This document shows, one piece after another, positions 9,578 through 48,669 of a DNA stretch of 64,000 bases. Location: positions 3,318-67,317 of the forward strand of contig JBAZML010000002.1 in NCBI GenBank assembly GCA_041649835.1, written 5' to 3'. The notes beneath the pieces were generated by a model. The model was not told the origin of the DNA and searched no databases. It worked only from the letters and a program-made list of their open reading frames with translations. How positions within the stretch are numbered: the first letter of the stretch is position 1; each line of letters begins with the position of its first letter. Position numbers and translations under genes: made by a program. The stretch comes from Candidatus Shapirobacteria bacterium. Its GTDB lineage: Bacteria; Patescibacteriota; Microgenomatia; UBA12405.

Positions 9578-9605
9578 CTTATCTGCCATGAGTAGAAAAA
9601 GTAAT

Positions 9606-9636
9606 GAGGGGGCCACTAAGGCCCCCTCAGCTTTTG
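9606..9636. terminator. bidirectional rho-independent terminator between convergent genes
   Basis: gagggggcc-actaa-ggccccctc perfect 9-bp GC stem followed by cttttgg. Confidence 0.65.
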
Positions 9637-9717
9637 GATTAGTCTTTTCTGTAGATTTCAATATCATCAGAAATTTTCTTTAATATGAGGTAAAGAAAAG
9701 CTTCGGTTTTCTTATTT

Positions 9718-9942
9718 TCAATTAAATCGCCCCTCAGGAAGCAACTCTAATTCAGAAACTCCAGGAAAACTGCGACCAGGAATATTTCCGGCACCAAATT
9801 CTTTTACCCAACGTTTGTGATTTTCAATATGTTCCTGTTTAAATTTAACCACATCACCTACTTTCCACCTTCTTTGATCATAGCACGTGCCCCTGTCATA
9901 ACCACATATGTCGCATTTAAGATTTTTCATGACTACCTCCAA
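9718..9942 (-). CDS. hypothetical protein (N-terminal CxxC)
   Basis: 74-aa ORF, KCDICGYDRGTC. Confidence 0.3.
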   Translation of the reverse strand: MEVVMKNLKCDICGYDRGTCYDQRRWKVGDVVKFKQEHIENHKRWVKEFGAGNIPGRSFPGVSELELLPEGRFN

Positions 9943-9990
9943 AGTTTTAGTTTATTATATACCCGGAAGCCAATTTCTGAAACAAGTTTT

Positions 9991-20269: not shown

Positions 20270-20277
20270 TATTTATA
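20270..20277 (-). promoter_or_regulatory. T4-type late promoter motif (TATAAATA on minus strand)
   Basis: tatttata on plus strand 15 nt upstream of fibre ATG; overlaps stop of upstream gene. Confidence 0.35.
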
Positions 20278-23200
20278 AATTTTTATTGATTCTATAGAAG
20301 CTCGTTATATCGAAATTGGATACTTTATATAGTTCACTTTTGATATACGTATAGAACATAAGTTCATCATCCTCATTAAAAAGCCCCATTTCGGTTATAG
20401 TAGTTTCCTCTTTATTACCATTGAAAAACCCCTTAATATAATATTTATTAGAGTCTTCAGTAATTATTAAATCGTAAATATACGAACTTATTAAGGTATT
20501 TTTCAGAGCATTATTTCCTATAGCATCATAGTTTTCAGTTGAAGCCCCGTTTCCGATCTCGATATATCCGTTTGACAAAGATTCTATTACATATTCTTTA
20601 GTATATAGTCCACCTAGACATGTTACAAAAGCGTATCCTGACTTTTGCTCTTCAAGAGTAATAGTAATCTGTTTTTTATCTCGAAACAAAGTTATTGTTT
20701 TTGGGAATATTTGTTTTAGTTCGTCATCATAAAGTTGAACTAGTACTCCCTTATGATCCAGGGTATGAGTTATAATCCATTCTGTAGAAGCAACAGATTG
20801 TACATATAGATAGTCACTATTTCTAATTTGGCAATATCCTAAAGTTGGTACATACCACGTAGAAGTCATTTGATCCACTTCTGTTATGCTAACATTAGAT
20901 GGCAACATTTGTTCTTTGTCTAAATAGAAGTAATAATCTGAGAGAACTGCACTAGTTTCTTGAGAATGAGTAAATCCCCAAGAAGCAGAAGCTTCATATG
21001 TATTTGTTAAGGTTTCTTTGGCGGCTCCTATTAGACAAAGACCAGAAAATGGAGAATCAAATTCTATAGAAACATTATTAGTATCTATTATTTTTACAGA
21101 AAGAGGAAATACCATTTCATAGGTATTATCATAACATTGTACTAAAACATTCTCTGTATTTAGACCATGAAATATGCTCCATTTAGAAGTTGGAACATAT
21201 TTTCTGTAAATGAACCCGGCAGAAGTAGACTCAGTATCTACACAACAATATGTATAGAAGTCGGCAACATTTCCGTATATATCATCATATGTTTTAATAG
21301 TTTCTTCACTAAAATCTGTTATTGGAGAAAGCAATAAAGAGTAATGAGAGTATTTGGAAGCCGGTCTAGAGACTTCAAGCTGATCATAAAGCATTAAAGC
21401 GTAATCTCTATTAAGAATATCTCTATCACATAAAGGCTCACAATTAAGGTCTATTTCAGCCTTATAATGCGGACTCATTAATAGACCGTCAGCATATGTT
21501 AATTGTCCTACTTCTCTTAGAATGGCCATGCCTGAAGCAGAGCTGGCAAAAGACGCTGTGACATTGTCTTTATCCACAGCTTGAAAATTCTCTGGGCTTC
21601 CTTGAAATAAAGTAGTACACACAGAATCAGCTATTCCGCAGGCAACATACCCAATGGCCGAAGTAGGAAATGTAACAACGATATTATTCTCGTCTACTAT
21701 TTCGACCTCAGGTGTATTATCTTTTACTGTAGGAATGAAACTTTGCTCTGCTACATAGATGATAACATCACCAGAAGTAGGGGTATTAAATAATATATTT
21801 GTCCAATTTTTATTATACAAATGTAATTCATCTGGAATAATCTCTATTCCACCACTATAAACTCTAACAACAATCTCATAATTGTCTAAATAGTGTTCTA
21901 CCCACCAACAAGCACTTGGAATCGTTTGAGTATATGTAAATACTGATTGATCATGATCTATTTGATATGTATTAATAAATATTTGTTCTGCTGCGGATAA
22001 AGAAACTGAAATAGTATCTGTTGACGCGCTAGCTGAAATAGTATTAAGCAGTCTTCTATTTAAATCATATACTTGAATAAAAAGGTTAGAAGAAGAGTAC
22101 TCGTTCATTAATTGAAATACAGTATTGTCTATTCCAGAATAAATGTTTGTAATAATATTCAAAGAATTAAGGTTGTGATTTATGTTCCAAATATTTGAAC
22201 GATATAAGAAGGCTTCAACATAATCTGGAATAGCCACTTCTAAATACCCAGCAAATGGATATGTAGAACTTAAGGCTAAGGTATTAGTATATATTGGTCT
22301 AATGTCTAGATCATTTACCGCGTTATAGTCGGTATCATATGCTTGAAGTAATTGGACGTCTCCACCACTAACAGTATAAGTGGACATCCAACCAGAGGAT
22401 AAAGGCAAAGTTAATGTTTCATCGGCTTCTAATAGAAAAATTCTGCCATTTTCTTCGCTAGCAAAGTTTACTTTCACAACATCATTTGTTATATTATATA
22501 AAGAAGAACAATTTGTTGTGGCTTCGCCCTCAGAATAAATTTGATATACTAAATTTTTGGAATTTAAAGTATGGGTTATGGTCCATGCAGACGTAGCCAT
22601 ACTTAAATAGAAGTCAGCCATTAATGCTTTTGAATCTAAATTATGTTCTATTTCCCATTCCATTTTGTCTATGGCTTGAATATGGAAATAGTCACCTGAT
22701 AGAGCAACAACTTGGGTACCATTATTGCTACTTATATTAGCAACTAAAATATCATTCATACCACTAGGCATTACTGTTTCAAATGTACAGATACCAGAAA
22801 TAGGAAGAGTAGTGGTATTATATGTAAAAGTTGTTGGGTAATATCCTTCTACTAATGGAGCAATTTGATTTAAATTATGAGAATGAAGTTCACTTATAGA
22901 TAGCAAAGGATTCATATACTGAGGCTTAGTTATGAGAGCAAATCCTGTAACCAGTTCATGAAATGTTAATAAAAGAGAACTAGAGTCTATACATGCAACT
23001 TCAGACGGACTAACAAGATTCATATAAGAATCAAAACATTGAATAACCGGAATCCTATCATCAAGGGAATGCGCAATATACCACCTATCAGAAGCATAAT
23101 TCTGTTTATGAATATAACAATTATCTAACGGAACATTAAACCCTTTACCAGAGGCCAGGGTATAATATTCTGCCCCTGTACAACCAACAGATAATGCATC

Positions 23201-24172
23201 ATAGTAGCTAAGATAATTGAAATCTATGAAATACGGTTCTAAATCATAGTCATGAGATAAATCAAAAACACTATCTGGATGCCATCTTTCATATACATTT
23301 AAATTATTTTCTGTGGCCCAAAATAGAGTTTTAAATGTTATGTATAGAGATGAATAGGTCCCCTTTCTTTTTAGGTAATTAATTATATTAGCTACAAGTT
23401 CTTTTAGTCTTCTTTCTCTAGCTCTAGTTTCTTCAGAAACTTTATCAATGAATAATGACTCAAAATAGGATTTATTTATTTGATAATTATAAATTTCTGC
23501 TAAATATGGAAGATAATCGAGAGGTATTTCTTTAGCATCTATCAAAGTTTTTATAGTTTTTGCTCTACTATAAAAAGCATTATATACCTGATCAAAAGTA
23601 ATTTTAAAGAATTCTTTTAATTTTGTAGTTTGATTATGTTCTGGAATACATGTTAAAGCATATCTATCATATCCCCAGTAGTCTATTCTATATTGATTAA
23701 CTTCTTTTTGGGGGTATATTTTACCGATATATTGGTGAATTTTATAAGGATTTATAAAATAAGTCATATCAATAGTATTGGTAAAACTGCTTCCATTTTC
23801 TACAAGGTTATCAACATATTCCTGTACTACCCCGCCCTTTCTTCTTAATAAGTAAAAATCTGTTTCGGCCGGAATATCTAAAGCACTGGTTGCCGAAGTT
23901 TCCATAGAACTCATTCTTTCTAAATAGAAGAAATTGTTATTATAATAGTCTTCTTCAGAGACTCCATAAGGTTTAAACGGTATTTCTATTTTTTGAACAA
24001 CCCCATCTAAATCTTCTATTTTAACAATACCGTAGAAATAACTCCAATTCTCTTCTATTACAGTTGTCATTGGTCCTACAAGAACTGATCCTGTATCAGA
24101 TAAAGCAACAGTACAAAATTTTGCTAAAAAGTCAGCTAGAATAAATTTTGGAAACTCTGAAAATTTAGGCAT
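20273..24172 (-). CDS. large baseplate/tail-fibre structural protein (1299 aa)
   Basis: Position between baseplate-J-like gene and fibre gene; size and S/T/N-rich composition. Confidence 0.45.
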   Translation of the reverse strand: MPKFSEFPKFILADFLAKFCTVALSDTGSVLVGPMTTVIEENWSYFYGIVKIEDLDGVVQKIEIPFKPYGVSEEDYYNNNFFYLERMSSMETSATSALDIPAETDFYLLRRKGGVVQEYVDNLVENGSSFTNTIDMTYFINPYKIHQYIGKIYPQKEVNQYRIDYWGYDRYALTCIPEHNQTTKLKEFFKITFDQVYNAFYSRAKTIKTLIDAKEIPLDYLPYLAEIYNYQINKSYFESLFIDKVSEETRARERRLKELVANIINYLKRKGTYSSLYITFKTLFWATENNLNVYERWHPDSVFDLSHDYDLEPYFIDFNYLSYYDALSVGCTGAEYYTLASGKGFNVPLDNCYIHKQNYASDRWYIAHSLDDRIPVIQCFDSYMNLVSPSEVACIDSSSLLLTFHELVTGFALITKPQYMNPLLSISELHSHNLNQIAPLVEGYYPTTFTYNTTTLPISGICTFETVMPSGMNDILVANISSNNGTQVVALSGDYFHIQAIDKMEWEIEHNLDSKALMADFYLSMATSAWTITHTLNSKNLVYQIYSEGEATTNCSSLYNITNDVVKVNFASEENGRIFLLEADETLTLPLSSGWMSTYTVSGGDVQLLQAYDTDYNAVNDLDIRPIYTNTLALSSTYPFAGYLEVAIPDYVEAFLYRSNIWNINHNLNSLNIITNIYSGIDNTVFQLMNEYSSSNLFIQVYDLNRRLLNTISASASTDTISVSLSAAEQIFINTYQIDHDQSVFTYTQTIPSACWWVEHYLDNYEIVVRVYSGGIEIIPDELHLYNKNWTNILFNTPTSGDVIIYVAEQSFIPTVKDNTPEVEIVDENNIVVTFPTSAIGYVACGIADSVCTTLFQGSPENFQAVDKDNVTASFASSASGMAILREVGQLTYADGLLMSPHYKAEIDLNCEPLCDRDILNRDYALMLYDQLEVSRPASKYSHYSLLLSPITDFSEETIKTYDDIYGNVADFYTYCCVDTESTSAGFIYRKYVPTSKWSIFHGLNTENVLVQCYDNTYEMVFPLSVKIIDTNNVSIEFDSPFSGLCLIGAAKETLTNTYEASASWGFTHSQETSAVLSDYYFYLDKEQMLPSNVSITEVDQMTSTWYVPTLGYCQIRNSDYLYVQSVASTEWIITHTLDHKGVLVQLYDDELKQIFPKTITLFRDKKQITITLEEQKSGYAFVTCLGGLYTKEYVIESLSNGYIEIGNGASTENYDAIGNNALKNTLISSYIYDLIITEDSNKYYIKGFFNGNKEETTITEMGLFNEDDELMFYTYIKSELYKVSNFDITSFYRINKNL

Positions 24173-37998: not shown

Positions 37999-38195
37999 TG
38001 TTCAAATCTCCTTTGTCGGTGAACCGAAGGATCGTTCAGCTCACTCTTGTTTGGGTTATATGGTATAGACAACACATATTTAAAATTTTGTTTTGGGTCT
38101 AAAGGTCGGTAATTCGTACTAGAATGTTCGTCGTTAGTAGTCGTCGTTTGTATATAAGTATTTATTAAAAAATTTCAGATTTTATCAAAAAATTA

Positions 38196-38243
38196 GTTTC
38201 AGGGGCTTGATGAGTATGATATAATAAACTAAAAGCTTGGAGG
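38196..38243 (+). promoter_or_regulatory. early/middle promoter cassette: GTTTCAG-N17-TGATATAAT-AAACTAAAAGCTTGGAGG
   Basis: 17-nt spacer, extended -10, conserved leader ending in GGAGG RBS before ATG 38254. Confidence 0.6.
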
Positions 38244-38253
38244 AAAGGAAAAC

Positions 38254-39572: not shown

Positions 39573-39776
39573 ATGTCTAGTCCCAATATACAGTTACTAA
39601 AGGCCACTTTAGAAAATCTTGCAAAAGAACTAAAATCTAATAGACCAATGATTTACGGAATAGATGGTGCATGGGCTCAAGGATACCAAGGGGGCCAATG
39701 GGATGCCGGATTTCATATTGAGGAATTACTAAAAGACTTTTTTGATTATGAAAAACCTGTTTCAGAAACCTCTTAG
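39573..39776 (+). CDS. hypothetical small protein
   Basis: GGAG RBS; 67 aa; its 3' end overlaps the next promoter cassette. Confidence 0.3.
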   Translation: MSSPNIQLLKATLENLAKELKSNRPMIYGIDGAWAQGYQGGQWDAGFHIEELLKDFFDYEKPVSETS

Positions 39777-39806
39777 GTATGTTATAATAAACTAAAACTT
39801 TGGAGG
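39759..39806 (+). promoter_or_regulatory. early/middle promoter cassette: GTTTCAGAA-N17-TGTTATAAT-AAACTAAAACTTTGGAGG
   Basis: Exact copy of the consensus; precedes GTG start at 39814. Confidence 0.6.
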
Positions 39807-39813
39807 TAAAAGG

Positions 39814-40107: not shown

Positions 40108-40115
40108 GTTATTTA

Positions 40116-40160
40116 GTTTCAGAATTTAGGTTAATGTATTATAAACTAAAACTTTGGAGG
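40116..40160 (+). promoter_or_regulatory. early/middle promoter cassette (variant -10 TATAAA)
   Basis: gtttcagaatttaggttaatgtattataaactaaaactttggagg. Confidence 0.55.
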
Positions 40161-40165
40161 TTGCC

Positions 40166-41541: not shown

Positions 41542-42060
41542 ATGAAATTATTATTTTGTGAAAAATGCGGAGAAATTATTCCTATACCGGCCCCTAAAAA
41601 TAAAATAATATATTGTTCATGTGGTAATATTGGAGGAATATATCAAGATAATTGCGTTTATGCAAATATATATCTGAGGGATGAAGAATCGTTTCATACA
41701 TCCAAAGTTTTGGGTTTGAATAATTCAATATTATTAGGACTAGAAAAACAAATAGTTTGTAATGTAGGTGAATGGAATGACAGTCAACTATCAATATTTG
41801 TTGATGGGACTCCTATCAAATATGAGGAAATTAAATGGCCTACATACACTGGTTCGGATTTGGGATCAGCCTTTAATTATTTGTTAAAAGAGATAGGTAA
41901 AGAATTAAAAGATATAAGTTTCATAAAGGATCAAAAAATAAAGTTTAAGGATGGAGGATATGTACTATTAGCTGAACAACCGGCAAACAAGGATTTTATT
42001 TATGTTTCCGTACAGAAAAAAGACGGATATTTGATAGAAACTAAGCTTTTAAGATATTAA
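41542..42060 (+). CDS. hypothetical protein with N-terminal zinc ribbon
   Basis: CEKCGE...CSCGN; 172 aa. Confidence 0.35.
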   Translation: MKLLFCEKCGEIIPIPAPKNKIIYCSCGNIGGIYQDNCVYANIYLRDEESFHTSKVLGLNNSILLGLEKQIVCNVGEWNDSQLSIFVDGTPIKYEEIKWPTYTGSDLGSAFNYLLKEIGKELKDISFIKDQKIKFKDGGYVLLAEQPANKDFIYVSVQKKDGYLIETKLLRY

Positions 42061-42075
42061 GGAGAAGAAAAAAAA

Positions 42076-42900
42076 GTGATATGCTATTTTCATGAAGACT
42101 TGGATGGGATATGTTCAGCGGCCATTATAAAACACAAATATCCATGGGTGGAACTTATTCCTTTAAATTATGGAGATGATTACGATGAAAAAATCTTCTC
42201 TAGAAATTTTAAAAATGAAACTATTTTTTTTGTAGATATAACCACACAACCGGTATCCATAATGAGTGAGTTGACTATATTAAACCGAGTGATTATTCTC
42301 GATCACCACATCACCGCCATTAATAATATTAAAGCTTTGAATTGGGAGCCTGAAGGTATTTTAGACACATCAAAAGCTGGTTGCGAGTTAGCTTGGCAAT
42401 ATTGTTTTCCATATCAAGAACTTCCACTTCCTGTTTATTATCTTGGAAGGTATGATGTTTGGGATCATAGTAACGAATTAACTTTACCGTTTCAGTATGG
42501 TATGAGACTATTAAATTTGGCACCAGATTCACATTATTGGAAATATCTTTTTGCTGGGCATAAAGACTCCTATGCCCTAATCATCGAAGACGGAGAACTT
42601 GTTATTGAGTGGGAAAAAACTCAAAATGCTAAAAGGGCAGCAAACGCCTTTGAAGCAGAGTTTGAAGGCTTAAGAGCTATCGTTTGTAATGGGGATAGTG
42701 GTTCACCTTTGTTTGATTCAGTATATAATGAAGATAAACATGATATTATGGTTAGTTTTATATACACGAAAAATAAAGTTTGGACCTATGGTCTTTATTC
42801 TACAAAGCCAGATGTGAATTGCGGAGAAATAGCTAAGAGGCGTGGGGGTGGGGGCCATTTTTCAGCGTCAGGATTTCAAAGTAAAAAATTCTTGTTTTGA
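42076..42900 (+). CDS. DHH-DHHA1 family phosphoesterase (NrnA/oligoribonuclease-like)
   Basis: Motif I HEDLDGICSA, DHH at LDHHITA, C-terminal DHHA1 GGGGHFSASG. Confidence 0.6.
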   Translation: MICYFHEDLDGICSAAIIKHKYPWVELIPLNYGDDYDEKIFSRNFKNETIFFVDITTQPVSIMSELTILNRVIILDHHITAINNIKALNWEPEGILDTSKAGCELAWQYCFPYQELPLPVYYLGRYDVWDHSNELTLPFQYGMRLLNLAPDSHYWKYLFAGHKDSYALIIEDGELVIEWEKTQNAKRAANAFEAEFEGLRAIVCNGDSGSPLFDSVYNEDKHDIMVSFIYTKNKVWTYGLYSTKPDVNCGEIAKRRGGGGHFSASGFQSKKFLF

Positions 42901-42912
42901 AGGAGTTAACAA

Positions 42913-43119
42913 ATGAAACTGGGTAAAATTCAATCATGTGGAAACATATGTTATGTATCTACCTCAATCGATGAAGTAACTTTAACGTTTGGTAGAGGTG
43001 AACTTGATGAGTGGGGGTTTTGGGAAATTCCATGCGAAATATGTGCTCAGAACCATAAAAAAGCTTATCCTAATGATTTGGTTTGGCCGGATAAAGATAT
43101 ATGTGATGAGCCTAGTTAA
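42913..43119 (+). CDS. small zinc-ribbon protein
   Basis: CGNICY...CEICAQNH. Confidence 0.3.
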   Translation: MKLGKIQSCGNICYVSTSIDEVTLTFGRGELDEWGFWEIPCEICAQNHKKAYPNDLVWPDKDICDEPS

Positions 43120-43317
43120 AGGAGAATATTAATGAGATTCCCAAGTAAAAAATCTTCAGGAAAATTTCCTAACAAACTAATATTTGCGTTTTTGCCGCGT
43201 AGGTGTACGAAGTGTAGAGACACTATATGGTTGGAAGGTATTATTAAATCTTGGTATTATGGACTTAATAGATTTACATGTCTAAAATGTTATAGTAATG
43301 AATAGAGGAGTTATTAA

Positions 43318-43533
43318 ATGAAATATGAGCCGGAATGTGATATGATGTGGGACAAAAATGGGTACATAGCTCGTAGATATTGGGATAATGTATTTTGTAA
43401 ATTCTGTGGAGCTCCATTAAGCCCTAATGAGAGTTATGGTGAAGGTCCAGGCGATGGACCTGGAATGTGTATAGAATGTGTAAGAATTATTTTTAATGAA
43501 GTAGAGGAGGAGATGACAAATGCAGAAACTTAG
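43318..43533 (+). CDS. small zinc-ribbon protein
   Basis: CKFCGA...CIECV. Confidence 0.3.
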   Translation: MKYEPECDMMWDKNGYIARRYWDNVFCKFCGAPLSPNESYGEGPGDGPGMCIECVRIIFNEVEEEMTNAET

Positions 43534-44409: not shown

Positions 44410-44625
44410 ATGGCTGGATATATTGGAAAAGTAAAATTGGATAAGGAAATTGTAGAAGGGTTTTTATTAATAGAACAAGATGAGCGTTACGATGAATATT
44501 ATGCAATGAAAATAGATGATGAATTATATCACGTTTATGGGGTTAATTTGCCTCGGTTTATTACAAGACTTGACAATTATAATTTAGAACAGTATATAGA
44601 AAAAGTGCCTAATGGCCTACTATAG
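44410..44625 (+). CDS. hypothetical small protein
   Basis: 71 aa. Confidence 0.3.
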   Translation: MAGYIGKVKLDKEIVEGFLLIEQDERYDEYYAMKIDDELYHVYGVNLPRFITRLDNYNLEQYIEKVPNGLL

Positions 44626-45250
44626 TTCAAAAGGCTCTCAGCTTCCCTCAGTCACAACTTTAATAGGGAGATATATTAATAAACCTTATTTAGCTAAGTG
44701 GGCTAGAGACTTAATGAGAGATTATTCTCTAGATTTTGAAAAAGAGTCCAGAATAGCCACAGAAATTGGTACAATAGCTCATGAAATGGTAGAATTAGAC
44801 CTTTTAGGACTACCATTAAAAGTATATCCTAAGAAATCTAAGGACCATATTAAACATGCTTTAATTGCCTATTCCGCTTGGGAGAAGTGGAAAGAATATC
44901 ATAAAATTGATAAGTTGCTAGGAACAGAAATAAAATTGACTTCAGAAGAGTATGGATTTGGGGGAACTATTGATATTCCTGCGGTAATTAATTCAAAAAA
45001 TACTATATTAGATCTTAAAACATCTAAGTCTATTAGTATAGAGTATCAGATTCAAATTGCCGCGTATGGTAAATTATGGGATGAAAATAATCCAGATACT
45101 AAAATTGAGAGATACGAAATTTTAAGACTTGATAAGTATTCTGGAGAATATGAATACGTAGGATGGGATGAATTAGAAAAACCTTGGAAGATTTTTAAAT
45201 ATTTTCTAGAAATAGACAAATTATTAAAAGAACTTGGGTATCAATTTTAG
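44612..45250 (+). CDS. PD-(D/E)XK-fold nuclease (RecB/Cas4-like core)
   Basis: LPSVTTLIG, GTIAHEMVE, GGTIDIP...ILDLKTSK (D...D/E-x-K). Confidence 0.45.
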   Translation: MAYYSSKGSQLPSVTTLIGRYINKPYLAKWARDLMRDYSLDFEKESRIATEIGTIAHEMVELDLLGLPLKVYPKKSKDHIKHALIAYSAWEKWKEYHKIDKLLGTEIKLTSEEYGFGGTIDIPAVINSKNTILDLKTSKSISIEYQIQIAAYGKLWDENNPDTKIERYEILRLDKYSGEYEYVGWDELEKPWKIFKYFLEIDKLLKELGYQF

Positions 45251-45299
45251 TTTCAGAAATTATCTAAACATGTTATAATAAACTAAAACTCTTTGGAGG
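45250..45299 (+). promoter_or_regulatory. early/middle promoter cassette: GTTTCAGAA-N17-TGTTATAAT-AAACTAAAACTCTTTGGAGG
   Basis: 17-nt spacer; leader ends in GGAGG before ATG 45305. Confidence 0.6.
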
Positions 45300-45610: not shown

Positions 45611-45636
45611 ACTAGAATTCTTTGGAGGAACCGATA

Positions 45637-46860
45637 ATGTCTTTAAAAAATGTTTATTTTGCTTTAGAGGAAATTGCCGCGGAACCTTCCACAAACGCTA
45701 AACAAATTTTAATTCAAAAATATCTGAATACTCCGTACTTTAAAGAAGTGGTTTATTTTACATATAATCCATTTTTAAAATATAAAATCTCTGAAGTTAC
45801 GTATACTGCATATAACCCATCTGGGTCTCCTGCAGATATTTTCAGTGTGTTAAGGCGCTTATCTGAGCAACGTGGAGCAAATAATCAAGATCGCAATGGA
45901 CTATCTAGAATAGCGTCTATTGATCCAGAAACAGTATCTGTGGTAAATAGAATTCTCAAGAGTGATTTGCGCTGTGGAGCTGGAACAACTTTATTTAGGA
46001 AGTTTATACCAGAAATTCCTAAACACGAGACAATGCTTTGTGGTAAAGATTTTGATAAATTCATGAAGTTAGCAGGGTCTTATGATAATGTAGTTGGATC
46101 TATAAAACAAGATGGTGTAAGAACTTGGGCCATCGTAGATAAACTTAGACAAAATGTAAAATACTTATCTCGTAACGGGAAAGAGTTTATTAATTTTGAT
46201 GTCTTTGACGAAGTTTTTATCGAATTTGCAAAGAAAGTCTATGATAATCAAGACGATTATGTTATTCTTGATGGAGAAGTCGTTACTAAAGACAAAAACT
46301 TTCAAAAAGTACTAACACAATTTAGTAGACATACTGGAGTCCAAAAAGATCTTTTTGAATTCAGAATCTTTGATATTGTTAATGATTTACCGTTTTATGC
46401 TAGATACGAACTATTAACTAAGCATTTTGAACTCGATACTAATCCAGATCATCCTCCTGTATGTTTGGTTCACCACTTTAGAAACTTCAAATCTAAAAAA
46501 GAAATTTATGATCTTCTTGATAAAGTTGCAGGAGAAGGTGAAGAAGGTTTAGTAATTAAAACCTTTAATGGCCCCTATGAGATGAAAAGATCTAATCATT
46601 GGTGTAAACTGAAATTAACTTACACTGAAGATTTACCAGTCTTACGTTTTGAATATGGCACTGGTAAGTATAAGAATTTACTTGGGGCTCTTATTTGCGA
46701 CAGAAATGGTGTAGAAGTACGGGTAGGCTCTGGGTATGATGACCAAGAAAGAGTTGATCTACTTAATATACCTTCTATGATAGAAGTCAAATTCAAAAAT
46801 GTTACAGATGATGGTTCACTAAGAGAACCTATCTTTGTTAGGGTAAGAGAGGACAAATGA
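45637..46860 (+). CDS. ATP-dependent DNA ligase
   Basis: Nucleotidyltransferase motifs I KQDGVR, III ILDGEVV, IV EGLVIK, V WCKLK. Confidence 0.8.
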   Translation: MSLKNVYFALEEIAAEPSTNAKQILIQKYLNTPYFKEVVYFTYNPFLKYKISEVTYTAYNPSGSPADIFSVLRRLSEQRGANNQDRNGLSRIASIDPETVSVVNRILKSDLRCGAGTTLFRKFIPEIPKHETMLCGKDFDKFMKLAGSYDNVVGSIKQDGVRTWAIVDKLRQNVKYLSRNGKEFINFDVFDEVFIEFAKKVYDNQDDYVILDGEVVTKDKNFQKVLTQFSRHTGVQKDLFEFRIFDIVNDLPFYARYELLTKHFELDTNPDHPPVCLVHHFRNFKSKKEIYDLLDKVAGEGEEGLVIKTFNGPYEMKRSNHWCKLKLTYTEDLPVLRFEYGTGKYKNLLGALICDRNGVEVRVGSGYDDQERVDLLNIPSMIEVKFKNVTDDGSLREPIFVRVREDK

Positions 46861-47170: not shown

Positions 47171-47761
47171 ATGAAAATTGGATTCGATTTTGACGCAGTG
47201 CTTGTAAACTCAGCTTTGGTTCTCTGTGATATATTATCGCAGACACTTAATAGATTAGTGTTACCTGAAGAAATATGTCTCTACGACATCCAAAAAGGTT
47301 TTCCGCAGTTATCAGACAAAGACATTATTCATGTAATAGACTCCTTAGTAAATATGGACAACACATTTAAAATTCCTCCATATCCTGGGGCCTTAGATTT
47401 TCTTAGGTGGTATGGAAAATCAAACCTAGAAATTATAATCATCACTAATAGAGTAGACCTAACTCCGGTATCTGTATATCTAGAATCTAACTTAGATAAA
47501 AAGACTTTTGAAAAAATTAGACTCTTTTATTCTAAAGAAAAAGGTCCATTATCCAGAGCGTTGGGTCTAAAATATTTCATTGAGGATAGATTTCAAAACA
47601 TTGTAAATTTAGCTAATCATGGCGTAGTTCCCATAATCTTTAAACAAAATTGGAATAAAAATCGAATCTCCCAAAAAAGTAATTTATTTGATTTGTGTGT
47701 ATTTGTTGATTCATGGGAGGACATATATAATTTTGTTGGGTGTGAGTTTTTTGGGTATTAG
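47171..47761 (+). CDS. HAD-superfamily hydrolase, 5'(3')-deoxyribonucleotidase-like
   Basis: N-terminal IGFDFDAVL (DxDx[TV] motif I). Confidence 0.45.
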   Translation: MKIGFDFDAVLVNSALVLCDILSQTLNRLVLPEEICLYDIQKGFPQLSDKDIIHVIDSLVNMDNTFKIPPYPGALDFLRWYGKSNLEIIIITNRVDLTPVSVYLESNLDKKTFEKIRLFYSKEKGPLSRALGLKYFIEDRFQNIVNLANHGVVPIIFKQNWNKNRISQKSNLFDLCVFVDSWEDIYNFVGCEFFGY

Positions 47762-47763
47762 CG

Positions 47764-47813
47764 GTTTCAGAAATCTTCTAAGCATGTTATAATAAATTAA
47801 AACCTTGGAGGTA
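47764..47813 (+). promoter_or_regulatory. early/middle promoter cassette: GTTTCAGAA-N17-TGTTATAAT-AAATTAAAACCTTGGAGG
   Basis: Consensus copy before ATG 47819. Confidence 0.6.
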
Positions 47814-47818
47814 TAGTC

Positions 47819-48450: not shown

Positions 48451-48669
48451 TTGATGTCTTTAGATACTGTTAAAACTATTATGTGGTGGAGTTTTTGGAT
48501 AGTGTTTTTTAATTTAATAATTTTCATAGGAACTGTGCTCGGTGCAATATATTGTCATAAAGCTCTTACGTGGTTGTGCGCGTTTGAGAGTTCTATCTTT
48601 TTATTCGCTGGAGGTATTTTTTATGTTTGCCAAAATTATATTGTGAAAAAGGCGGAGAAAAATTTATGA
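48451..48669 (+). CDS. small membrane protein
   Basis: Two hydrophobic helices. Confidence 0.3.
   Translation: MMSLDTVKTIMWWSFWIVFFNLIIFIGTVLGAIYCHKALTWLCAFESSIFLFAGGIFYVCQNYIVKKAEKNL

Follow-up and report, generated by a model that had tools for sequence, protein, structure and literature searches.

A small phosphoesterase gene in the early-looking part of a tailed phage genome raises the question of which substrate its product serves: the short oligonucleotides left by nucleic acid breakdown, or the nucleotide signals with which a host defends itself. The gene lies at positions 42076..42900 (+) of a 64,000-nucleotide (nt) stretch of contig JBAZML010000002.1, deposited under Candidatus Shapirobacteria; this whole stretch is referred to as the window, and all positions are counted in it. 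We find that the gene is intact, that the catalytic motifs of its product are intact, that the product has the fold and the family membership of a DHH-DHHA1 phosphoesterase, and that the gene stands in a promoter-headed operon. The reading that we rank first, at a probability of about 0.45, is that of an early-expressed two-metal "nano-nuclease" that would convert RNA and DNA of 2-5 nt to mononucleotides and feed the nucleotide pool; its substrate, its polarity and its physiological role are what we infer. This coincides with the alternative given in the initial annotation of this DNA, which had proposed an anti-defence enzyme or, failing that, one that recycles nanoRNA. The same annotation was right about an intact DHH-DHHA1 enzyme in an early-looking phage block, and imprecise in labelling it NrnA/GdpP-type.

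An intact DHH-DHHA1 phosphoesterase

The open reading frame (ORF) begins with GTG and, with its stop codon included in the coordinates, encodes 274 amino acids (aa). A Shine-Dalgarno sequence, AAGGAG, was read from the sequence 11 nt 5' of the GTG (42059..42064, +), and the same-strand neighbours are close on both sides, the previous ORF ending at 42060 and the next starting at 42913, with gaps to the DHH gene of 15 and 12 nt. When genes were called independently on the source contig, the same 274-aa product was obtained, and the identical protein is found at NCBI as MFA5025041.1, in a record named 'MAG: DHH family phosphoesterase [Candidatus Shapirobacteria bacterium]' (MAG, metagenome-assembled genome) from a 95,161-bp contig; being already public and annotated as a DHH phosphoesterase, it is hence not new. 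No near-identical DNA to the phage region was found among 50,697 deposited phage records.

Upon locating the motifs by script, we found HEDLDG, DHH and the C-terminal GGGH exactly where the initial annotation had put them, and motifs II and IV, which it had not mentioned, are likewise present. Conservation was counted column by column after aligning 59 homologues (40-86% identity). Motif I, H6-E-D8-L-D10-G11 (42091..42108, +), contains metal ligands, and its H6, D8, D10 and G11 are kept in at least 57 homologues; motif II, D54 (42235..42237, +), is present in all 59 and aligns with the motif II Asp of Staphylococcus aureus NrnA; and motif III, D76-H77-H78 (42301..42309, +; codons gat cac cac), is equally invariant (59/59). 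The motif IV region holds the family signature G-R-Y-D127-V-W-D130 (residues 124-130; 42445..42465, +), in which G124 and D127 are found in every homologue and R125, Y126, W129 and D130 in at least 56. GGGH itself (residues 258-261; 42847..42858, +), located by script and read from the sequence, lies 13 residues before the end of the protein; G259 and H261 are invariant (59/59), and GGGHxxAAG is the family consensus in the same alignment. Because the motif residues are invariant or nearly so among the homologues, this conservation indicates a catalytically competent enzyme under purifying selection.

The domain models agree with this layout to different degrees. The Pfam DHH model (PF01368) passes its gathering score of 28.1 with 29.9 bits and the DHHA1 model (PF02272) stays below its cut-off of 25.9 with 19.6 bits, a cut-off that certain homologues pass, gp125 of phage EL with 32.2 bits being one; the fold of the C-terminal lobe matches solved DHHA1 lobes. 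Pfam detected no domain beyond DHH and DHHA1 in the 274-aa protein, and PHROG 4771 'DHH phosphoesterase' covers residues 2-270 with an expectation value (E) of 3.7e-39. The AlphaFold2 model (predicted local distance difference test, pLDDT, 95.5; predicted template modelling score, pTM, 0.86) consists of an N-terminal alpha/beta lobe (residues 1 to ~160), a long alpha-helical linker of 26 residues between the lobes (163-188, from DSSP on the model; 42562..42639, +) and a small C-terminal DHHA1 lobe (192-274; 42649..42897, +) with no C-terminal extension.

Against solved structures, Foldseek gave a probability of 1.00 to essentially every stand-alone DHH-DHHA1 enzyme, with Helicobacter pylori 6mtz as the top match and TM1595, Mycobacterium smegmatis NrnA, Borrelia DhhP, Rv2837c/CdnP, GdpP, PggH and archaeal RecJ/Cdc45 among the others, at an identity of only 10-17% and a whole-chain template modelling (TM) score of ~0.5. 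We found no literature on the top match, PDB entry 6MTZ, an orphan that may be an NrnB. Predicted viral structures fit better (TM 0.7-0.85), the best being DHH proteins of the giant viruses Klosneuvirus, Hokovirus, Lausannevirus and Marseillevirus and of the jumbo phages PhiEaH1, PaBG, RP12, ME3, Y3 and AR9 (the last named 'NrnB'). A single-sequence search of PDB sequences returned no relevant match, and the family profile reaches NrnA-like PDB chains via the DHHA1 lobe only (E 6.5e-6 to 2e-4).

Placement among NrnA, GdpP, RecJ and NrnB

Three established identities were tried and rejected. As an NrnA, the protein scores 15.4 bits on the NCBIfam equivalog NF053633 against a cut-off of 350, with only the DHHA1 end being matched. 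In NrnA, the RxRxR motif binds substrate phosphates; at its place, found by profile alignment to NrnA and DhhP chains together with column counts, there is a strand W236-T-Y-G-L-Y241-S242 (42781..42801, +), so that R-C-R-L-R-S of S. aureus NrnA stands against W-T-Y-G-L-Y-S here and W-T-V/Y-S/G-L-Y-S in the family, with Y241 kept in 56 of the 59 homologues and an Arg at 241 in one. As a GdpP, it begins motif I at residue 6 and is devoid of transmembrane, PAS and degenerate GGDEF domains. As a RecJ, it scores ~20 bits on the NCBIfam RecJ models, whose cut-offs are 360-550; hhalign of the family profile against Escherichia coli RecJ gives a probability of 1.9% with the GGH region alone aligned, and Thermus thermophilus RecJ is reached at E 0.6 by the same profile that reaches the NrnA-like chains. 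Because RxRxR and the accessory domains are missing and the equivalog scores are far below their cut-offs, the protein is not NrnA, not GdpP and not RecJ. Of the NrnA/GdpP-type label, the DHH-DHHA1 part stands, and the assignment to NrnA or GdpP falls on model score, RxRxR and accessory domains.

We consider it quite improbable that the protein is a RecJ-like exonuclease on single-stranded DNA, which would take part in recombination, in end resection or in the processing of Okazaki fragments along with helicase, recombinase, ligase and PD-(D/E)XK nuclease of the phage. It draws on weak matches of the N-terminal lobe to archaeal RecJ models (E 2e-4), on the archaeal RecJ/Cdc45 structures among the fold matches (E ~1e-9) and on the RecJ annotation carried by homologues in Brevundimonas and Serratia phages. 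The long inter-lobe helix of the model, the DxDG spacing of motif I and the GGGHxxAAG consensus also resemble RecJ architecture. The model scores, the hhalign probability and the profile E-value given above speak against it, as does the length of the protein, since 274 aa leave no room for an oligonucleotide/oligosaccharide-binding (OB) fold and no extra domain is present.

When compared with NrnA, Pde2, CnpB (Rv2837c), Borrelia DhhP and TM1595, the protein has the catalytic motifs in common with them, and these enzymes include its best PDB profile matches, via the DHHA1 lobe, and rank among its top fold matches (E ~1e-10 to 1e-12). It differs from them in the low identity and TM-score noted above, in the replacement of RxRxR by T-x-S/G-x-Y, in the H-x-D-x-D-G spacing of motif I and in having a helical rather than a flexible linker. 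The likeness to NrnB (COG2404; Bacillus subtilis YngD and the clades NrnB-B and NrnB-C) comprises the stand-alone DHH and DHHA1 lobes with DHH and GGGH motifs, the predicted alpha-helical linker at 163-188 and, in common with these two clades, a chain that has no C-terminal extension; furthermore, at least 12 homologues carry the JGI name 'oligoribonuclease NrnB/cAMP/cGMP phosphodiesterase (DHH superfamily)', which is that of COG2404. The alpha-helical linker is a distinguishing feature of NrnB (PMC10570053, PMC12709177). Characterised COG2404 NrnB enzymes are 3'-5' exonucleases on RNAs of 2-4 nt, with activity on a DNA 5-mer as well and none on cyclic di-AMP (c-di-AMP), and the clades without a C-terminal extension favour short substrates (PMC12709177, PMC10570053). 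The protein is unlike NrnB in its size, 274 aa against 375-450 aa for those Firmicutes NrnB sequences that PMC10570053 examined, and in its setting, which is viral or that of a mobile element here and housekeeping for NrnB.

A candidate nuclease for short oligonucleotides

In the mechanism that we favour, the gene would be transcribed early from a host sigma-70-like cassette at 40112-40161. Going by family chemistry, the DHH lobe would hold two divalent metals through H6/D8/D10, D54, D76-H77-H78 and D127, and the DHHA1 lobe would present the short oligonucleotide through GGGH 258-261 together with the family-specific residues N205, S210, F213 and Y241, with the rigid helix 163-188 fixing a narrow cleft. 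Nucleotides would be removed singly from RNA and DNA of 2-5 nt to give 5'-mononucleotides, and the enzyme would thereby clear the short oligonucleotides that arise from nuclease action on host RNA and DNA and from primer removal, returning their nucleotides to the pool. As a side effect, certain cyclic di- or oligonucleotides may be opened by this chemistry too.

We place the nano-nuclease first because of the helical linker, the lack of an extension and the COG2404 label on homologues, and because its solved relatives prefer linear di- and oligonucleotides, the best solved matches being stand-alone phosphodiesterases that act on oligonucleotides or dinucleotides, namely TM1595, M. smegmatis NrnA, Rv2837c, Borrelia DhhP and PggH. 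The ranking also rests on a NUDIX fusion in one family member, on the position of the gene in one unit with an exonuclease and beside a ligase unit, and on nuclease, ligase and nucleotide-metabolism neighbours that recur without being conserved. Additionally, relatives are carried by viruses of bacteria, archaea and amoebae, which suggests that a universal substrate fits better than a host-specific signal. In the same direction, a knock-out of the mimivirus DHH gene R106 has no fitness defect, and amoebae have no known cGAS-like receptors (cGLRs) (10.64898/2026.07.21.739742). Were the protein and its relatives nanoRNases or nano-DNases, many viruses would bring along their own enzyme for the last step of nucleotide recycling.

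The main rival, which we regard as possible but doubtful, is a counter-defence phosphodiesterase that would act early in infection on cyclic GMP-AMP (cGAMP) and cyclic UMP-AMP (cUA) of the cyclic-oligonucleotide-based anti-phage signalling system (CBASS), on cyclic triadenylate (cA3) and on the cyclic tetra- and hexaadenylate (cA4/cA6) of type III CRISPR, so that host effectors are never activated. The anti-defence idea of the initial annotation had already been proposed and partly tested by others. Iyer et al. predicted that DHH enzymes of some jumbo phages counter SMODS/CBASS and type III CRISPR signals (PMC7824862), and a July 2026 preprint that surveys viral DHH-DHHA proteins and sorts them into five groups, with an ordered inter-lobe helix in Groups 4/5, reports two activities: in vitro, 3'3'-cGAMP is degraded by mimivirus R106, as are many other messengers, and in a cell assay 3'3'-cGAMP-STING signalling is blocked by phage Ph-DHH-3B (Profeta et al. 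2026, 10.64898/2026.07.21.739742). In the same work, however, the catalytic-mutant control of Ph-DHH-3B is not clean and the R106 knock-out shows no phenotype (10.64898/2026.07.21.739742). Phage EL gp125 (YP_418158, Ph_DHH_7B), which is the only tested enzyme that we could tie to the family by sequence, is not among the reported actives on cGAMP, and the nearest tested relative gives the idea no support.

The structural and genomic evidence on counter-defence is likewise divided. The DHH-DHHA1 fold can cut cyclic dinucleotides, with GdpP and Rv2837c/CdnP being among the structural matches, and the closest structural neighbours are DHH proteins of giant viruses and jumbo phages. Early host-type promoter cassettes would suit such a role. 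So would the surroundings at 53 dereplicated homologous loci (495 neighbours, clustered by blastp), where the gene is set in arrays of small genes on its own strand; the median length of a neighbour is 118 aa, and none is a conserved partner. On the other side, bacterial NrnB enzymes leave c-di-AMP uncut, known anti-defence genes are not among the recurrent neighbours in a Pfam tally of 150 of them, and members are also carried by viruses that infect amoebae or methanogens, hosts with different immune signals.

Only as a counter-defence enzyme would the protein resemble Acb1, Apyc1 and AcrIII-1, in that one phage protein, made early, would hydrolyse an immune messenger; there is no relation in fold or catalytic chemistry, with only DHH and DHHA1 being detected here. 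Acb1 is a 2H phosphoesterase, Apyc1 has the metallo-beta-lactamase (MBL) fold, and AcrIII-1 is a DUF1874 ring nuclease. If counter-defence were nonetheless the role, DHH-DHHA1 would be a very abundant third enzymatic fold against nucleotide-based immunity, after 2H/Acb1 and MBL/Apyc1, and immune evasion by phages, archaeal viruses and giant viruses would be linked. It is unlikely, in our estimate, that the whole virus-associated clade of minimal DHH-DHHA1 proteins, in which we count the present gene, over 3,500 clusters (50% identity), bacterial and archaeal phages and the giant-virus relatives by fold, forms a broad-spectrum eraser of cyclic-oligonucleotide immune signals; the DHHA1 pocket, with Y241, S210 and N205 in place of RxRxR, and the rigid linker would then be tuned for cyclic and not for linear substrates, and the clade would count among the most widespread anti-CBASS and anti-type III CRISPR enzymes.

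Several points weigh against the nano-nuclease. The activity of the 42076..42900 protein and of its close relatives is a prediction from sequence, and the likeness to NrnB was set by motifs, the modelled linker, homologue labels and published descriptions of NrnB, with no NrnB model among the matches of the NCBIfam scan. Bacterial hosts already own nanoRNases, and it is not obvious why a phage should need a copy. Counter-defence genes, too, are typically expressed early, spread widely by horizontal transfer and found in variable neighbourhoods, and the breadth of messengers that the mimivirus enzyme degrades in vitro, 3'3'-cGAMP included, counts on the same side (10.64898/2026.07.21.739742). 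Across the 53 loci there is no conserved partner gene, the largest cluster being a helicase in 3 loci, and because no partner recurs, the nuclease and ligase contexts of single homologues are anecdotal and make no rule. Whichever substrate applies, the protein is one more unremarkable instance of a family already annotated and under study, and it is chiefly of practical use to biochemists, as a representative that is compact (274 aa) and modelled with confidence.

Size and distribution of the family

Searching 1.84 billion representatives with the family profile returned 3,522 clusters (50% identity) when E was limited to 1e-30; with the limit at 1e-10, there were 12,154. In IMG/VR, at least 431 viral contigs of ~4 to 334 kb encode a relative, and relatives are found in phages of ~20-330 kb and in archaeal MAGs, to which the fold comparison adds giant viruses. 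When 185,579 species, represented by one genome each, were scanned for a sequence pattern, only 44 loci were found, all of them in MAGs, where cellular genes are mixed with portal, methylase, helicase and conjugation genes. Because cellular and mobile-element neighbours are mixed, the 44 loci suggest integrated elements together with mis-binned viral contigs, and for the same mixture we do not claim an exclusively viral distribution. Nine of the 44 are located in MAGs of Methanotrichaceae (Methanothrix) archaea, some on contigs of 128-425 kb (L088, L091, L092, L094, L097, L106, L108 and L110 belong to these loci), and the family therefore crosses the boundary between bacterial and archaeal viruses, probably by way of proviruses. 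Distant relatives are also found on nine plasmids, in one of which the gene adjoins a Ref recombination nuclease and an integrase.

Among viral DHH-DHHA1 phosphodiesterases, the protein is matched over nearly its full length by PHROG 4771 and, as described above, by the folds of the viral proteins. Phage EL gp125 is found by tblastn at E 4e-14, with values down to 1e-20 against family members; it differs by an N-terminal extension of 117 aa, the studied protein being minimal, and identity to any cultured-phage protein is only 20-34%. With the viral Group 4/5 phosphodiesterases the protein shares the ordered helix between the lobes, which is predicted here (10.64898/2026.07.21.739742), and the likeness was drawn from this linker helix and from the presence of the EL gp125 homologue in the test set of the preprint. 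Viral phosphodiesterases of this kind (PHROG 4771, and the preprint's Groups 4/5) are exemplified by EL gp125 as well as by proteins of Klosneuvirus, Hokovirus, Marseillevirus, PhiEaH1, PaBG and ME3.

Twenty longer relatives were scanned for fusions, yielding one with NUDIX and two with homing-endonuclease insertions, and the remainder had no extra domain. In the first (P0162, 469 aa), a C-terminal NUDIX hydrolase domain is fused to DHH-DHHA1, which hints at a link to nucleotide-diphosphate or RNA-cap metabolism. The other two (P0242 and P0253, ~480 aa) contain an in-frame NUMOD4 and HNH_3 insertion directly after motif IV, at family position ~132, a sign that the DHH gene has been invaded in an intein-like manner or by way of an intron.

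Gene neighbourhoods of the homologues

In the 53 homologous loci, 83% of the neighbours are on the same strand as the DHH gene, and the median gap is 11 nt. The Pfam tally of 150 neighbours is heterogeneous, with helicases, PDDEXK nucleases, methylases, Pol III alpha and ThyX being found alongside dCMP deaminase, dGTP diphosphohydrolase, HD_4, radical SAM and portal proteins. The association with a ligase and an exonuclease that the window displays was tried as a general rule and rejected, each occurring in 2 of the 53 loci (for the ligase, within 6 kb). Single annotated contexts point towards the processing of nucleic acids. In phage EL, the order is NAD-ligase, RNase H, DHH and RNA ligase; in csAssE-Sib, a polynucleotide kinase (PNK)/3'-phosphatase gene overlaps the DHH gene and a dUTPase lies near; and in a T4-like contig, UvsY, UvsW, DHH and PDDEXK follow one another with Mre11/Rad50 close by. 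Other homologues adjoin UvsW, UvsY, PDDEXK, RusA, ThyX, dCMP deaminase or dGTP diphosphohydrolase.

Those homologues that adjoin UvsW, UvsY, Mre11-Rad50, RusA or the Ref nuclease would suit the RecJ-like exonuclease discussed above, whereas a helicase neighbours the gene in only 3-4 of the 53 loci. The ligase contexts bear on the least probable of the readings, a very unlikely one, in which the protein would be an end-healing or bisphosphate phosphatase, acting as a 3'-phosphatase on adenosine 3',5'-bisphosphate (pAp) or as a 2',3'-cyclic phosphodiesterase that aids ligase/PNK repair after host nuclease attack. The RNA ligase next to the phage EL homologue, the overlapping PNK/3'-phosphatase of csAssE-Sib and the ligase 2.7 kb downstream in the window are in its favour; NrnA-type enzymes, moreover, are bifunctional pAp phosphatases, a PAP phosphatase structure (8a8k) is among the fold matches, and DHH enzymes hydrolyse 2',3'-cAMP according to a reference cited in PMC7824862. 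It is opposed by the absence of RxRxR, by the rarity of a ligase within 6 kb (the 2 of 53 loci above) and by the fact that PNK and ligase are not among the recurrent neighbour families.

Promoter cassettes and the transcription unit

Conserved promoter cassettes upstream of the gene had been claimed, and the window bears this out: the strict pattern GTTTCAG-N14-TGTTATAATAAACTAAAAC has 5 matches against 0.00 expected, in addition to one variant. The cassette is ~50 nt long, reads GTTTCAG-N14-TGnTATAATAAACTAAAAC-(N)-TTGGAGG and is present in six copies. The first, at 38188..38246 (38196; +), displays the extended -10 element TGnTATAAT, the conserved leader and GGAGG; the second lies at 39751..39809 (39759; +); the variant copy at 40112..40161 (+) is the nearest upstream of the DHH gene and the likely start of its unit; and the fourth, at 45250..45298 (+), marks the end of that unit and the beginning of the ligase unit. 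The two others are at 47756..47814 (47764; +) and, on the minus strand, at 9944-9983. The window scan found no further cassette between the 40112 variant and 45250. With its extended -10 element, conserved leader and Shine-Dalgarno sequence, the cassette is consistent with early transcription by host RNA polymerase. The leader, which separates the -10 element from the Shine-Dalgarno sequence, might serve as a regulatory RNA element.

The cassettes split a 14-kb plus-strand block into units, and the DHH gene is approximately the eighth gene of the one that runs from 40112 to before 45250, with ~5 kb of small genes. The position of the gene in an early region, as first described, is upheld in the sense that it belongs to a phage block of small genes which looks early, having promoters of the host type. 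The unit closes with a gene for a PD-(D/E)XK (Cas4/RecB-like) exonuclease (44612..45250, +; PHROG 298, E 7.8e-27), and the next unit contains an ATP-dependent DNA ligase (45622..46860, +; PHROG 114, E 4.3e-82; Pfam DNA_ligase_A_M). None of the small neighbours of the DHH gene has a Pfam or PHROG match, and for this reason the "anti-host-type" label that they had been given remains a guess. Small cysteine-rich, zinc-ribbon-like ORFs flank the DHH gene on the plus strand at 41542-42060, 42913-43119, 43132-43305 and 43318-43533. A 26-nt repeat, ATTATwTTGTGAAAAAkGCGGAGAAA, is found at the 5' end both of 41542-42060 and of a region at 48635, which suggests paralogous small genes.

Other features of the phage window

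The window comes from the genome of a tailed phage. Its minus strand carries the tail genes at ~17 to 38 kb, which encode sheath, baseplate wedge, baseplate hub and a lytic tape-measure-like protein, and the head genes at 52 to 64 kb, which encode the large terminase, the portal and the major head protein, and the plus-strand block of 38.2-52.2 kb between them has a strongly positive GC skew and many short, packed ORFs. The contig was deposited in a MAG of Candidatus Shapirobacteria, of the Patescibacteria or candidate phyla radiation (CPR), yet its genes include those for terminase, portal, major head protein, sheath and baseplate; either a myovirus has been binned wrongly, or the phage is one that infects a CPR bacterium.

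At 9600-9983 (-), a single cysteine-rich ORF of ~70 aa (MKNLKCDICGYDRGTCY..., ATG at 9930) is driven by the cassette of the minus strand and followed by a GC-rich hairpin at ~9603-9625, and the whole looks like a self-contained, moron-type early gene that was inserted antisense to its neighbours. Finally, the minus-strand ORF at 20273-24172 encodes 1,299 aa with five tandem PHROG 21918 matches and a region matching an HNH-endonuclease PHROG, and its product is probably a repeat-rich tail fibre or receptor-binding protein.

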